DNA of 64,000 nucleotides from a phage. A model generated the notes under the pieces. The model made no database searches and was not told the DNA's origin. It saw only the letters and a list, made by a program, of their open reading frames with translations. Shown here piece by piece: positions 12,903 through 40,934 of the stretch; within the stretch, counting starts at the first letter, position 1, and every line of letters begins with the position of its first letter. The position numbers and the translations under genes were made by a program. The stretch is taken from the sequence record PZ452596.1. One strand, 5' to 3'.

Positions 12903-13373
12903 TTAATCATGTTTCCACACCCCATCGGTATTTGACCAAAGTCGCTGATTGTCTGATCCTCGCCACAGCTTTTTGGTCGGAAGATTTTTCTCATACTTCC
13001 CATCAATAATAACATCAACATATTTAAGCATTTCTAGTTGTTTAATATCTTCAAACTTATATCCTGTCCACAACCAAATGCTTTTATTGGGATAAAGATT
13101 TTTTACTGTTTGAACGATGCAATGAATAACATCTCGGTTATCAGGATAGAGAGGGTCACCTCCGGTTATAGTCAATCCTTCTATATAATCATTATTCAAA
13201 CATTCAATTAATTGTTCTAGTGTCTCTCCAGTGAATGGAACACCATTTCTAGCATTCCATGTTGATTTATTATAACACCCTTCGCATTTATGCAAACAAC
13301 CTGTAACGAAAAGAACGACCCTGCAACCAGGGCCATTAACAAAATCGCAAGGATAAAATCTATCATAATTCAT
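12903..13373 (-). CDS. nrdG: Anaerobic ribonucleotide reductase activase NrdG (radical SAM)
   Basis: 156-aa ORF with CLHKCEGC (CxxxCxxC) motif. Confidence 0.9.
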   Translation of the reverse strand: MNYDRFYPCDFVNGPGCRVVLFVTGCLHKCEGCYNKSTWNARNGVPFTGETLEQLIECLNNDYIEGLTITGGDPLYPDNRDVIHCIVQTVKNLYPNKSIWLWTGYKFEDIKQLEMLKYVDVIIDGKYEKNLPTKKLWRGSDNQRLWSNTDGVWKHD

Positions 13374-15187
13374 TGGTGCTTAACCCTATGCATGATTTCT
13401 TTATTTTTACCGAGATTAAATCCGCGTTCGTTCGGATTTCCCAAATAACCACATGTTCTTCTTATGGTATTCATCTTTTTAGGATCAGTTTCTCCACAAA
13501 TAGAACAAACAAATCCGTTTTCAGTAGGAGTCATTTCATGGGTACTTCCGCATGTAAAACATTTATCTACCGGCATGTTAACACCAAAATAATCTAAATG
13601 TTGTGCAGCATAATCCCATACGGCCTCAAGGCCTTTCAAGTTATTTTTCATATCAGGAAGTTCAACATAAGAAATGTGACCACCTGTCGCAATGAAATGA
13701 TATGGCGCTTCACGAGAAATCTTTTCAAACGGAGTAATATTTTCTTCTACTGAAACATGGAAACTGTTAGTGTACCAGCCTTTATCGGTAACATCTTTTA
13801 CGCTTCCATATTTTTCTGTATCGAGTTTACAGAAGCGATAACAAAGGTTTTCAGCAGGAGTCGAATATAAACTAAAAGCAAATCCAGTTCTTTCAGTCCA
13901 CTGTTTAAGATGAGCATTCATTTTAGTTAAAATTTCTTGTCCAATATCACGACCGACAAGAATATTCAATTCGTGAATACCAATGTATCCCAAAGACACT
14001 GAACTTCTGCCGTTTTTAAATAACTCAATTATATCGTCATCAGGTTTAAGACGAACCCCAAATGCACCTTCTTGGTAAAGAATAGGAGCAACAGTAGCTT
14101 TAACTCCTTTTAAGGAACTAATTCTACACATCAAAGCTTCAAAACACAGATCCATTCGTTCATTGAATAATTCAACAAATTTCTGTTCATTGAACTGTGT
14201 TCCAATATAAGAATCTAACGCGATGCGAGGAAGATTCAGTGTTACAACACCAAGATTATTACGTCCATCAAGAATTTCATTACCAGTCGAATCTTTCCAT
14301 ACGCTCAAGAAACTACGGCATCCCATCGGAGAAACAGGAACAGATGAACCAGTGATAGCTTTATTGTTCTTAGCTGAAATAATATCAGGATACATCCTTT
14401 TGCTTGCACACTCTAGAGCAAGCTGCTTAATATCATAGTTCGGATCGTCTTTGTAAAGATTAACGCCTTCTTCGACGAACATAACAAGCTTAGGAAAAAT
14501 AGGAGTTATCCCATCACGACCAAGACCTTTAATACGATTTTTCAGAATTGCTTTCTGAATCATTCGTTCAGTCCAGTCAGTTCCCGTACCAAATGTAATT
14601 GTTACAAAAGGTGTTTGTCCGTTTGAACTAAAGAGAGTATTTACTTCATATTCATAAGCTTGGAATGCATCGTATACGTCTTTTTCTGTTTTAGATTGAG
14701 CATAATTCAACGCATCAGCGATTTGCCATTTTTCTGCATCCTCAATATGTTTTGCATAGGTGCGTTTAACATAAGGAGAAAGTACTTTATCTACATTCGC
14801 AAAAGTCGTTCCGCCATATTGATGGGAAGCAACTTGCGCAGTAATTTGTGCCATAATTGCAGTAGCAACACCGATTGATTTAGGAGTTTCAATCTGCGCA
14901 TTACCAAGCTTAAATCCGTTCTCAAGCATTCCTTTTAAATCTACTAAACAACAATTAGTAAATGGAAGAGCAGGGGAATAATCAATATCATGGAAATGAA
15001 TAATTCCGCTTTCATGCGCTTTCATAATAAAAGACGGGACCATATTTTTGGCAATGTGTTTAGACACAATACCAGCCATAAGGTCCCGTTGAGTTGGAAA
15101 AACACGAGAATCTTTATTAGCATTCTCGTTTAAAAGGTCTTTATTAGTTTTATGAATCAATCCTTCAATTTCTTTTTCAATTGTCAT
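13370..15187 (-). CDS. nrdD: Anaerobic (class III) ribonucleotide reductase NrdD, uninterrupted ORF
   Basis: 605-aa ORF with C-terminal glycyl-radical motif RRTCGYLG; no intron-like interruption. Confidence 0.9.
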   Translation of the reverse strand: MTIEKEIEGLIHKTNKDLLNENANKDSRVFPTQRDLMAGIVSKHIAKNMVPSFIMKAHESGIIHFHDIDYSPALPFTNCCLVDLKGMLENGFKLGNAQIETPKSIGVATAIMAQITAQVASHQYGGTTFANVDKVLSPYVKRTYAKHIEDAEKWQIADALNYAQSKTEKDVYDAFQAYEYEVNTLFSSNGQTPFVTITFGTGTDWTERMIQKAILKNRIKGLGRDGITPIFPKLVMFVEEGVNLYKDDPNYDIKQLALECASKRMYPDIISAKNNKAITGSSVPVSPMGCRSFLSVWKDSTGNEILDGRNNLGVVTLNLPRIALDSYIGTQFNEQKFVELFNERMDLCFEALMCRISSLKGVKATVAPILYQEGAFGVRLKPDDDIIELFKNGRSSVSLGYIGIHELNILVGRDIGQEILTKMNAHLKQWTERTGFAFSLYSTPAENLCYRFCKLDTEKYGSVKDVTDKGWYTNSFHVSVEENITPFEKISREAPYHFIATGGHISYVELPDMKNNLKGLEAVWDYAAQHLDYFGVNMPVDKCFTCGSTHEMTPTENGFVCSICGETDPKKMNTIRRTCGYLGNPNERGFNLGKNKEIMHRVKHQ

Positions 15188-31019: not shown

Positions 31020-31363
31020 CTAGTACTCAATCCTCGATTATAAGAATCTACCAAACGGTCAACCATTGAATGACAAGCGGCTTTATCTTTCTCCTCCGCA
31101 ACTGAGCATTCTAAGGTATTCCACTTTTTAGCATATCGTTTTAATAATGTATCGTTTTTGTATCTGCTTGATTTATCTCTTTCTCCGTCTTTATATGCAT
31201 ATATTAATTTCTGTGCAAATTCAGCTTGGCATGCTTTATTTTTCCCACAATAATCTGCCGCAGTGCGGTTTACATATTCTCTAATTTCAGTATATGATGT
31301 ATCTGCTGATGCAGAAGCAGAAAATGAAATTAATCCTATACATAAAACCAAAATTTTAGTCAT
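31016..31363 (-). CDS. Small secreted Cys-containing protein, 115 aa
   Basis: N-terminal signal-peptide-like MTKILVLCIGLISFSASASA; four Cys. Confidence 0.5.
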   Translation of the reverse strand: MTKILVLCIGLISFSASASADTSYTEIREYVNRTAADYCGKNKACQAEFAQKLIYAYKDGERDKSSRYKNDTLLKRYAKKWNTLECSVAEEKDKAACHSMVDRLVDSYNRGLSTR

Positions 31364-31901
31364 TTACTATTTCCAAAAGTTTATTATTTTTAAGGTAATT
31401 AGCCTTTTCTAGGACTTCAGAAGCATATTTAGAACCTGCTTTAACATTCCATCCCGAATTATAAGAGGATATTGCTTTTCTTATATCGCCCTTATGTATA
31501 TTTAACCAATAAGAAAGTTCAATGTACGCCCAGGAAGCTGAATTGGATCGTTTATTCAACATTCTTTTTATTTCAGCATCAGTCATATTATAACCAAGTT
31601 CCTTAACTCTCGCTCGCATAGTAGGCAAATAATTTTGGAACATTCCATAAGCGTGATGCTTTGGTTTAGATTTTAAATTAACTCCGCCAGAGCTTTCTTG
31701 CCATAAAATGGCTGCCATTATATGACCTAATCCGCTCTTGTGGATATTTTTATGTGTTTTATATTTTCCATCCTTAGAAAATTGTTCCCCGAATTGATAC
31801 GCGTAACGCATGTTATCGAGTTGGACATTACTGAAAGTATGCTCGGAGCTATGTGCCATCATTGAAATGGCCAATAGACCAGCGAGTAGTGCTTTTCTCA
31901 T
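31356..31901 (-). CDS. Secreted lytic transglycosylase (SLT)-like protein, 181 aa
   Basis: Signal peptide MRKALLAGLLAISMMAHS; SLT-type AILWQESSGG motif. Confidence 0.55.
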   Translation of the reverse strand: MRKALLAGLLAISMMAHSSEHTFSNVQLDNMRYAYQFGEQFSKDGKYKTHKNIHKSGLGHIMAAILWQESSGGVNLKSKPKHHAYGMFQNYLPTMRARVKELGYNMTDAEIKRMLNKRSNSASWAYIELSYWLNIHKGDIRKAISSYNSGWNVKAGSKYASEVLEKANYLKNNKLLEIVND

Positions 31902-32708: not shown

Positions 32709-32974
32709 TAGTATTTTTCCTCTGGTTGGAACACTGCACGACAAGCCCACATACTGGCTTCTTTGAGTTTCGTTTTAGCAATAGTTAACTGATCGAGGCT
32801 TTCGGAGTAATTCTTCGCGAGTTCATCATCTTCACAGCTATCAAATGCTTCCCAAAATTCATCGTATAAAGCATCAAAGATAAGTCCTAAACGAACTTCA
32901 GCGTCTTTAATAGCATTTACTTTACCGATTTTTTCGTCGGTATGTGGCTTATAACCTTTAATATCTTCAATCAT
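32708..32974 (-). CDS. Acb2-like (T4 Vs.4-type) candidate anti-CBASS nucleotide sponge, 88 aa
   Basis: Track ORF trimmed to [15 protein letters not shown] (RBS GAGGAA); C-terminal [10 protein letters not shown] resembles the Acb2 family; position in the vs cluster. Confidence 0.45.
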
Positions 32975-33188
32975 ATTTGACTTCCTCACCAGTACATAAA
33001 TCGTATTCAACTAAACGAATAGGTTCATGAATGCCATATCCCTGAACAGAAATTTCTGTCGTAGGATAAATTCCACTAATATCACCCATGTTCCACGCTT
33101 CATTAAATTGCTGTTCGCCTGAATTACTAAACCATTCTGCGAAAGCATTTAGCACATCTTTAGAACCTTCAATAATTATCTTTGCCAT
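32967..33188 (-). CDS. Hypothetical protein, 73 aa
   Basis: Track ORF. Confidence 0.5.
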   Translation of the reverse strand: MAKIIIEGSKDVLNAFAEWFSNSGEQQFNEAWNMGDISGIYPTTEISVQGYGIHEPIRLVEYDLCTGEEVKYD

Positions 33189-33550
33189 TACAGACTCTCA
33201 GTAAAGGTACGAGCGATAACGTCGCGCTGCTGTTCCGGAGTCAGAGAGTTAAAGCGAACTGCATAACCGGATACACGGATGGTCAGCTGCGGATATTTTT
33301 CCGGATGCTTAACTGCATCTTCCAGAGTTTCACGACGCAGAACGTTAACGTTCAGATGTTGACCACCTTCAATTTTAACTGTAGGCTGTGGCTCAATTTC
33401 AATTTCACGGGCATGCAAACCGTAGAAAATTTCTGGGTCTACAAAAGAGTCCTCTTTAAAGGTTTTAGAGACAATAATTCGTGCTTGAATACCATCTTCA
33501 AAATAAATAGTGCCTTTGTGTGTGCCTTCAAGAATTTGATATGCTTTCAT
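33188..33550 (-). CDS. GrcA/YfiD-like autonomous glycyl-radical cofactor protein (T4 Y06I type), 120 aa
   Basis: C-terminal glycyl-radical domain with [27 protein letters not shown]. Confidence 0.8.
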
Positions 33551-33557
33551 ATAAACC

Positions 33558-33887
33558 TCAATTAGAAAATAAATTTATCCAAGATTGTTCTTTAATTAAA
33601 AATGGCTCAGAATCATATGCCATTAAACTTTGCGTAATTAATCCTTTAAAAGGTCCATCAATAAATTCCATGGTAAAATATGGAATTTTATTCATTAGCC
33701 GTGCATTAGGAGCAGTACACAAAACTCTGCATCCTTTGAATACGCCTTTTTGTAATTTGTATTGCTTAGGATAAAATTCGCTCAAGACGTTGTTATTTGC
33801 CAAAATTTCAAAATGATTCACCAATTTATTTTTAATAGTTTTTGGCGAAAAATAAAGATATTCGAAAAGCTGAGTGTCTGTCATCAT
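33558..33887 (-). CDS. Hypothetical protein, 109 aa
   Basis: Track ORF 33558..33938 trimmed to [10 protein letters not shown]; ATGATGA overlap with the upstream stop. Confidence 0.45.
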
Positions 33888-40426: not shown

Positions 40427-40501
40427 TGGCGGACGTGATAGGATTCGAACCTATAACCAATCGCTTAACAGGCGATCGCTCTGCCATTGAGCTACACATC
40501 C
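40427..40501 (-). tRNA. tRNA-Asn (anticodon GUU), CCA encoded
   Basis: Hand-folded cloverleaf; anticodon loop CUGUUAA; T-loop UUCGAAU. Confidence 0.75.
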
Positions 40502-40505
40502 AAAT

Positions 40506-40592
40506 TGGTGGGGAGTGATGGAGTCGAACCACCCGAGTCGCAATGACAATGGATTTACAGTCCACACCGCTACCTCTACGGGATAACTCCCC
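40506..40592 (-). tRNA. tRNA-Tyr (anticodon GUA), long variable arm, CCA encoded
   Basis: Hand-folded; anticodon loop CUGUAAA; 15-nt variable arm; T-loop UUCGACU. Confidence 0.75.
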
Positions 40593-40601
40593 TAATTAAT
40601 T

Positions 40602-40676
40602 TGGTGGCCCTGGGTGGAATTGAACCACCATCTGGCGATTATGAGTCGCTTGCTTGAACCTTCCAGCTACAGGGCC
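40602..40676 (-). tRNA. tRNA with CAU anticodon (Ile2/AUA-reading type as in T4, or elongator Met)
   Basis: Hand-folded; anticodon loop CUCAUAA; anticodon stem lacks initiator-type GGG/CCC pairs. Confidence 0.7.
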
Positions 40677-40677
40677 T

Positions 40678-40753
40678 TGGTGCTGATTGACGGAATCGAA
40701 CCGCCGACCTTCTCATTACAAGTGAGTTGCTCTACCTACTGAGCTAAATCAGC
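40678..40753 (-). tRNA. tRNA-Thr (anticodon UGU), CCA encoded
   Basis: Hand-folded; anticodon loop CUUGUAA. Confidence 0.8.
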
Positions 40754-40758
40754 AAAAC

Positions 40759-40848
40759 TGGCGGAGGCGATAGGATTTGAACCTATGAGTCGCCGGAGCG
40801 ACTGCCGGTTTTCAAGACCGGTGCATTAAACCACTCTGCCACGCCTCC
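40759..40848 (-). tRNA. tRNA-Ser (anticodon UGA), long variable arm, CCA encoded
   Basis: Hand-folded; anticodon loop CUUGAAA; 18-nt variable arm. Confidence 0.8.
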
Positions 40849-40850
40849 AG

Positions 40851-40924
40851 TCTCCATACAAGGATTTGAACCTTGGACCTCCTGATCCCAAATCAGGCGC
40901 TCTACCAAACTGAGCTACACGGAG
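40851..40924 (-). tRNA. tRNA-Pro (anticodon UGG), CCA not encoded
   Basis: Hand-folded; anticodon loop UUUGGGA. Confidence 0.75.
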
Positions 40925-40934
40925 TAAATTAAAT

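Follow-up and report, generated by a model that had tools for sequence, protein, structure and literature searches.

The vs.6 gene of Enterobacteria phage RB27, a T-even phage, carries in its second half a stretch of the chromosomal grcA gene of Escherichia coli. The gene lies on the minus strand at 33188..33550 of the 64,000 nucleotides (nt) of phage DNA that were analyzed (record PZ452596.1, hereafter the window), and from an ATG start it encodes a 120-residue autonomous glycyl-radical cofactor, a homologue of GrcA/YfiD and the counterpart of Y06I in phage T4. It is a chimera composed of an old phage-type 5' part of 178 nt, referred to below as the head of the gene, and a copy of E. coli grcA at gene nt 179-353 with one base changed; the 3' half as a whole is referred to as the tail. 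Related phages carry the version of their own hosts, and we propose that the glycyl-radical domain of vs.6 has been subject to recurrent, homology-dependent gene conversion by host grcA, a reading to which we give a probability of about 0.8.

The similarity to the host gene is confined to the tail. In a blastn search of 5426 complete E. coli genomes, grcA was matched in all of them, and the match covered only nt 179-363 of vs.6, with 98.4% identity; when the whole window was compared with E. coli genomes by megablast, the sole universal match was at window positions 33184-33372. Aligned with E. coli grcA, the tail is identical at 182 of 185 nt, whereas the head is identical at 80 of 178 (44.9% of the aligned columns; Fisher p = 1e-34), and a three-way alignment places an abrupt junction at gene nt 179. 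The phage-type part (gene nt 1-178, residues 1-59) thus occupies 33373..33550 and the host-derived tract (gene nt 179-353) 33198..33372, both on the minus strand; this tract equals nt 200-374 of E. coli grcA except at gene nt 195 and encodes the structured glycyl-radical domain. In the last 10 nt of the gene (33188..33197, minus strand), which include the stop codon, two bases are not those of E. coli (G at gene nt 354 and T at 357), so that, with gene nt 195, the RB27 tail departs from E. coli at three positions in all. The T4 tail differs from E. coli grcA at nt 357-358 only, and its first 176 nt are 100% identical to the host gene.

A break of the same kind is found in composition and codon usage. 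The initial annotation, which was made from the letters alone, had described a 3' segment of about 180 nt with a guanine-plus-cytosine (GC) content of about 50% against about 35% upstream, had noted host-like codons in it, and had proposed that it would show raised identity to enterobacterial grcA. All three points are borne out: the identity of the 3' half to E. coli is 98.4-100%, and the quantitative analysis of 33188..33550 found the break in codon counts, in the GC content of third codon positions (GC3) and in the adaptation to phage codon usage. GC content is 35.6% in gene nt 1-180 (GC3 25%) and 48.6% in nt 181-363 (GC3 41%), with a mean of 35.0% for the 64-kb window. Over 90-nt segments the peak within vs.6 is 54.4%, a value reached by 0.28% of such segments across the 64 kb; for segment lengths of 90-180 nt, 0.3-0.9% of the segments in the 64 kb are as GC-rich as the vs.6 peak, and the GC3 of the 3' half is within the top 0.6%. 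All six Leu codons of this half are CTG and all three Pro codons are CCG, whereas the corresponding figures for the other long open reading frames (ORFs; n = 69) are 82 of 1291 (6%) and 77 of 572 (13%); its Arg codons are four CGT and two CGC. Scored against the usage of the phage itself, codon adaptation is 0.54 for the 3' half, at the 1st percentile of 1306 stretches of 60 codons, and 0.68 for the 5' half, which is typical of the phage. The host-derived tract therefore stands out through its GC content of about 50% and its host-type codons.

These comparisons also bear on the donor and on the direction of transfer. The tail matches E. coli grcA at 98.4-98.9%, against 97.3-97.8% for a cryptic Escherichia lineage, and E. 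coli and Citrobacter are 92.9% identical to each other. The synonymous divergence (dS) of the phage tails is 0-0.10 to E. coli, 0.35-0.56 to Citrobacter and above 1 to Salmonella, values that carry wide errors over a tract of 171-183 nt; between T4 and E. coli, dS is 0 over 57 codons. The sequence comparisons thus point to E. coli itself as the donor of the RB27 and T4 tails. Between hosts, dS is of a similar order in the head and the tail (0.63 and 0.38, respectively, for E. coli and Citrobacter), and the blastn search with the gene found no site in the E. coli genomes covering at least 80% of the query, and thus no phage-type head. Since the host gene has no discontinuity between head and tail, since the tract has the GC content and codons of the host, and since the phage-type head is absent from the E. 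coli genomes, E. coli was the donor and the phage the recipient.

The head, for its part, is related to the corresponding half of the host protein. When only the heads were compared by BLASTP, the N-terminal 60 residues of the phage protein matched the N-terminal 67 residues of GrcA weakly but specifically (E = 5e-6; 14 of 40 residues identical, 35%), and relative to GrcA the phage N-terminal part of 59 residues is 7 residues shorter. The alignment to the TIGR04365 model of the GrcA/YfiD family (IPR011140) spans residues 20-120 of Y06I and scores 153.3 bits, under the equivalog cut-off of 170 because the N-terminal half has diverged; the 60-residue phage head by itself matches no NCBIfam model. 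The identity of the head between phages tracks phage taxonomy, being 98% within Tequatrovirus and, against other genera, 88% with Mosigvirus, 72% with Jiaodavirus and 59% with Slopekvirus and Pseudotevenvirus. The head is thus a strongly diverged, vertically inherited homologue of the N-terminal half of GrcA, and this homology implies that host sequence overwrote, on more than one occasion, the second half of a grcA homologue that the phages already possessed, rather than that two unrelated parts were fused. The earlier suggestion of a recent host-derived segment fused to a phage part is therefore retained for the origin of the 3' half (98.4% identity) and has to be given up for the fusion to an unrelated phage part, as the head is itself a GrcA homologue.

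Among the E. coli phages, the head and the tail of vs.6 have diverged to very different degrees. In comparisons of Tequatrovirus with Mosigvirus, identity is 40-85% for the flanking genes and 85-92% for the heads but 97-100% for the tails; the dS values are 0.405 for the head and 0.086 for the tail. Counting over 180 head positions and 171 tail positions, T4 and a Mosigvirus contig (L094) differ at 18 positions of the head and at none of the tail. Nearly all substitutions that lead away from the E. coli sequence in phage tails are private to one phage. At tail positions 174-180, in the last 10 nt, T4, RB27, p000v and OES_C-2 each combine E. coli-type and phage-type bases differently, and on the right the host tract ends within these last 10 nt of vs.6, at a position that varies between phages. 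In the phage collection, 639 records match E. coli grcA at 95% identity or more, and the matching tract always comprises host nt 200-384 only; a metagenome scan with the phage-type junction pattern returned mostly chromosomal grcA of Haemophilus, together with about 10 contigs of the phage type. Taken together, the comparisons indicate that the history of the tract differs from that of the head and is younger.

The Klebsiella phages of the genus Jiaodavirus present the same architecture with other donors. The grcA gene of K. pneumoniae matches 106 phage records at 95-99% over host nt 202 to 369 or 374, and those listed among them are Klebsiella phages. The Jiaodavirus heads have a GC content of 35% and the tails one of 56-59%. 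The tail of L114 differs from K. pneumoniae grcA at one position in 157 nt, and the tails of L213 and Nispero are 99.4% and 97.5% identical to it; that of KP179 is 92.5-93% identical to grcA of K. pneumoniae or K. aerogenes, and that of L205 is 95.0% identical to a Raoultella metagenome-assembled genome (donor labels of such genomes being those of the record titles) versus 91.9% to K. pneumoniae. Klebsiella-type synonymous variants are found in the Klebsiella phages, and the heads of L114, L213, Nispero and L205 are all at least 98.9% identical to the KP179 head. Between Nispero and KP179, 2 of 180 head positions and 12 of 171 tail positions differ (p = 0.005), an asymmetry opposite to that of the E. 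coli phages. As three tail types (K. pneumoniae-like, Raoultella-like and KP179-type) stand behind near-identical heads, several separate donors have contributed in Jiaodavirus, and the tails in this genus were evidently, to judge from the sequences, drawn from multiple Klebsiella or Raoultella-like sources.

Some observations on individual records of this set may be added. In the Jiaodavirus-like genome L114 / L184 (IMGVR_UViG_2974754850_000001, 167 kb), the 5' half of vs.6 is frameshifted after ...DAETF, which could reflect a sequencing error or a recent inactivation of the gene; despite the frameshift, its tail was the most K. pneumoniae-like among those read by then. A candidate for a third host conversion, L117 (IMGVR_UViG_2706794630_000006), which is labeled viral in IMG/VR, has a tail 91% identical to Yersinia grcA, but it was rejected as a bacterial grcA locus on account of its host-type N-terminus (MITGIQITKA...) and its bacterial context. 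Two PLSDB entries, CP125156.1 and LR134122.1, are labeled as plasmids of 5.37 Mb and 568 kb and are evidently Klebsiella chromosomal sequence; in one of them grcA is frameshifted in an A-run, and both are still usable as a source of host grcA. These records and L117 call for caution with database labels.

Other phages possess the gene in what may be its original form. The tails of Karamvirus, Krischvirus, Slopekvirus, Pseudotevenvirus and T5-like phages are 71-85% identical to E. coli grcA at the nucleotide level and at most about 84% identical to any host gene sampled, and none of them is converted. For Krischvirus, Karamvirus and the T5-like phages alone, the values are 71-82% to E. coli grcA and at most about 80-83% to any sampled host gene, as expected if conversion depends on prior similarity. 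The homologues in Karamvirus CC31, Slopekvirus Matisse, Pseudotevenvirus leB, Krischvirus KMB43 and the T5-like phage Spc35 belong to the same family and have nearly the same tail protein as vs.6; they differ from the RB27 gene in their tail DNA (71-85% to E. coli) and in a GC step that is much weaker or missing, and they represent the unconverted or a long-ameliorated state. Cronobacter phage leB has a tail protein that equals the E. coli GrcA tail at 100% of its residues, but the DNA is only 85% identical. Thus, selection accounts for the conservation of the protein and cannot account for the nucleotide identity of the T4 tail.

A closer comparison within these relatives revealed further patterns. 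The genes of leB (L005) and of Klebsiella phage Matisse (L006), at 401-763, are 82-86% identical to each other, and their tail proteins differ at two residues (LEDAVK and LLDAVE), the same two that separate E. coli-type from K. pneumoniae-type GrcA. Each of the two tails fully equals one host-type tail protein with a DNA identity of 82-85%, a pattern that could reflect matching to the host at the protein level or an old, ameliorated conversion. In Salmonella phage Spc35 (L008, Tequintavirus; 401-769) and in L130-L156, a T5-like grcA homologue of 122 residues lies just 3' of transfer RNA (tRNA) genes, with tails 70-75% identical to any host grcA; the family thus occurs widely among virulent phages of enterobacteria that show no recent conversion. 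In Aeromonas phages PX29 (GU396103.1) and phiWae14 (LC778249.1), the vs.6/grcA homologue directly adjoins nrdG, the distance between vs.6 and nrdG in RB27 and T4 being about 18-20 kb; this layout suggests that the spare-part gene was ancestrally linked to the module for anaerobic nucleotide reduction.

A mechanism for the proposed gene conversion can be outlined as follows. The conversion would be templated by host DNA during infection, and its likely route would be T4-type recombination-dependent replication or synthesis-dependent strand annealing, with a phage 3' end copying host grcA. Protein constraint on the glycyl-radical domain may hold the phage and host genes at about 80-85% nucleotide identity, which would be enough for them to recombine, and each conversion would lift the identity to about 100% and ease the next one, so that the process would reinforce itself. 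The tract would end where the similarity ends, that is, at the codon boundary of EGGQH on the left and, on the right, at the stop codon, where the start of vs.5 overlaps. As unconverted phages already make this tail protein, conversion is probably nearly neutral as far as the protein is concerned, possibly with some gain from host-optimal codons. A more far-reaching version, in which the tail is repeatedly re-templated from the chromosome of the most recent host and lytic phages thus exchange sequence with their hosts at an evolutionarily visible rate, is one that we hold tentatively, at slightly less than even odds.

The number of host events is the point on which another account differs most clearly from ours. 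According to it, conversion took place once per host lineage, with a single event in an E. coli phage and one or a few in Klebsiella phages, after which the 3' half spread among co-infecting T-even phages without ongoing exchange with the host. T-even phages recombine readily, the tail differences between Tequatrovirus and Mosigvirus are as few as those to E. coli, and within Tequatrovirus the dS values of the head (0.133) and the tail (0.057) are of similar size. In addition, a derived base is found on both sides of this divide: at gene nt 195 (window 33356), CAC has become CAT in RB27 and in the Mosigviruses p000v and L093, but not in T4 or other Tequatroviruses, and this T was not found among the best-matching E. 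coli genomes, so that it could be a homoplasy or a trace of tail exchange between phages. However, spread between phages would require the same head/tail breakpoint each time, with heads that are 9-12% diverged next to identical tails; the right-hand ends of the tract vary between phages, and the three tail types of Jiaodavirus speak for several donors. We therefore consider this account unlikely; moreover, it still includes a host-derived conversion and changes only the number of events. A single ancient capture of grcA, in which the N-terminal half drifted to phage composition while purifying selection froze the C-terminal half, would agree with a tail protein that is almost invariant over all phage and host homologues. 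Selection on the protein, however, cannot keep synonymous sites, and the complete synonymous identity of T4 and E. coli contrasts with a dS of 0.38 between E. coli and Citrobacter; the leB tail, with the same protein and 85% identical DNA, and the Klebsiella-type synonymous variants of the Klebsiella phages also contradict this scenario, and we regard it as very improbable. Least probable of all is an artefact (contamination by host reads or a chimeric assembly) or a transfer from phage to E. coli. Phage lysates do contain host DNA and the T4 tract is exactly host-like, but one in-frame junction is shared by about 750 independent phage records and 165-kb metagenomic contigs, with private substitutions and phage-type last bases, and the reverse transfer is contradicted by the host codons and GC content of the tract, by an E. 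coli grcA whose head and tail are comparably diverged from other Enterobacteriaceae, and by the lack of a phage-type head in the E. coli genomes.

Several points nevertheless weigh against recurrent conversion by the host. For the E. coli phages, independent host events are not separable from one event followed by the spread of the tail between phages, and the T shared at nt 195 is a hint in the latter direction unless it is a homoplasy. Searched against the phage collection, Salmonella grcA found no phage above 90% identity and only E. coli-type tails at 82-84%, even though Tequatroviruses that infect Salmonella exist. T4 degrades the DNA of its host and uses modified cytosine, which may limit such exchange, and the recombination mechanism itself is inferred. 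The best matches of the KP179 and L205 tails, at 93% and 95%, do not pin down their exact donors. A neighbour-joining tree of the tails gave the expected groupings with moderate bootstrap values (59.5% for Escherichia with the T-even phages, 51.5% for K. pneumoniae with Jiaodavirus), and our conclusions therefore rest on percentage identity, difference counts and dS. Finally, about 20 phage vs.6 genes were read base by base, and hundreds of others were covered through BLAST summaries.

The identity of the gene itself is well established. Over the 363 nt of the query, identity is 100% to the RB27 sequence and 98.1% to T4 vs.6, and the RB27 protein does not differ from T4 Y06I at any residue. 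The prediction of a 120-residue ORF ending in a GrcA/YfiD-type glycyl-radical domain was confirmed by the Pfam family Gly_radical (E = 2.8e-18, residues 61-101), and the likeness to T4 Y06I noted at the outset is now sharpened from one of type to one of identity; the Pfam family Dehydratase_LU (E = 0.018) fell short of the cut-off. In the PDB the best match is 6owr (YfiD; 8.6e-42), followed by PflB residues 697-759 (5e-26), and the protein is assigned to PHROG 1209. Its C-terminal 60 residues are identical to residues 68-127 of E. coli GrcA. It shares with YfiD/GrcA, whose nuclear magnetic resonance structure is 6OWR, the RVSGY glycine loop and the form of a small stand-alone protein. The predicted radical-bearing residue is Gly95 of RVSGY, encoded by the codon GGT at 33266..33268 (minus strand) and identified by alignment to 6owr and PflB; it is equivalent to Gly102 of GrcA and Gly734 of PflB.

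The function of these proteins has been described. Oxygen cleaves pyruvate formate-lyase (PFL) at Gly734, and the C-terminal domain of YfiD or Y06I replaces the lost PFL C-terminus (PMC8683613); as summarized there from Wagner et al. 2001, both YfiD and Y06I restore oxygen-cleaved PFL after activation by the PFL-activating enzyme. Residues 1-60 of YfiD are disordered yet required for binding and activation, while residues 61-127 are structured and duplicate PFL residues 693-759 (PMC8683613). The host tract begins at residue 60 of Y06I, which is residue 68 of GrcA, and covers essentially the structured domain including Gly95. Being identical in sequence to Y06I, the RB27 protein would be an autonomous glycyl-radical spare part for oxygen-cleaved PFL, with the radical placed on Gly95 by the PFL-activating enzyme of the host. 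It had been proposed that the protein could rescue glycyl-radical enzymes of the phage or of the host, given that the phage carries nrdD and nrdG. Both genes are present in the window, outside the mosaic: nrdG at 12906..13373 (minus strand; Fer4_12 and Radical_SAM), the activase, and nrdD at 13373..15187 (minus strand; Pfam NRDD, 1.7e-171, and Gly_radical), the phage's own glycyl-radical enzyme. A BLASTP comparison of the Y06I tail with this NrdD gave E = 2.5 and did not align the glycine site, and rescue of the phage enzyme is thus not upheld; as the tail lacks similarity to NrdD, the partner would be host PFL, in line with its match to PflB residues 697-759. Infection by T4-type phages switches off the expression of host genes, and a copy encoded by the phage might keep the fermentative production of acetyl-CoA and ATP going in infected cells in the microaerobic gut.

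The gene has a conserved neighborhood. It belongs to the small number of ORFs that are shared by every T4-like genome compared by Nolan et al. 2006 (PMC1524935), and the gene order vs.7 - vs.6 - vs.5/vs.4 is kept in Straboviridae, with the same neighborhood in Karamvirus, Jiaodavirus, Slopekvirus and Pseudotevenvirus. vs.6 is a stand-alone ORF of 120 residues with its own start and ribosome-binding site, a Shine-Dalgarno GAGG at 33556..33559 (minus strand) that was read from the sequence 5 nt upstream of the ATG, and its neighbors are unrelated small genes. Its stop codon overlaps the start codon of the downstream vs.5 homologue (TAATG), which lies at 32967..33188 on the minus strand according to the ORF list and the T4 annotation and gave no match in a Pfam scan; similarity to the host locus stops at vs.5. 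Promoter and terminator scans around vs.6 gave counts not above those of shuffled sequences. Two further observations in the window are unrelated to the mosaic. The vs.1 homologue (31356-31901, minus strand) has an N-terminus that reads like a signal peptide (MRKALLAGLLAISMMAHS). The region 40441-40926 is 84-89% identical to about 240 non-mobilizable plasmids of Escherichia, Shigella and Salmonella with no annotated feature under the match, and the GC maximum of the window lies at about 40310, some 130 nt upstream; we suspect a phage tRNA gene cluster in this region and P1-like phage-plasmids among the matching plasmids.

Previous reports on the cyanophage genes psbA and psbD described intragenic recombination between host and phage with patchy %G+C (Zeidner et al. 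2005; Sullivan et al. 2006, PMC1484495). Like these, vs.6 belongs to the auxiliary metabolic genes of T4-like phages and has within-gene GC patchiness and an exchange of segments between host and phage, and the features that mark the psbA/psbD mosaics are all found in it: an in-frame break in composition, a host-like segment that includes the synonymous sites, and an incongruent history of the segments. Unlike psbA/psbD, vs.6 has one clean tract whose left boundary is fixed at a domain border and whose identity to a named host species reaches 100%; the direction is from host to phage only, and the donor changes with the host genus (E. coli, Klebsiella, Raoultella-like). The vs.6 mosaic also occurs, unlike that of the cyanophages, in enterobacterial T-even phages that contain hydroxymethylcytosine. 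Neither the gene nor its biochemistry is new, and our analysis leaves the glycyl-radical biochemistry unchanged; a literature search found no paper on the nucleotide mosaic of vs.6/grcA, although an earlier remark in the T4 literature is possible.

The best-studied lytic phage, T4, thus carries 176 nt identical to the chromosome of its host, and its relatives carry the versions of their own hosts; in its evolution this stretch is independent of the remainder of vs.6. The vs.6 gene offers a clean and experimentally tractable case of gene conversion from a host to a virulent phage, and a natural example of how protein constraint may keep a phage gene similar enough to the host copy to recombine with it. 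Of practical interest for engineering and phage therapy is the ready-made perfect homology between phage and host at the vs.6 locus. If the tail is indeed re-templated repeatedly from the most recent host, the tract of about 175 nt would be a record of the recent host species (E. coli, K. pneumoniae or Raoultella-like) that could help to assign hosts to uncultured T4-like phages, and it may serve as a species-level host marker for such phages in metagenomes.

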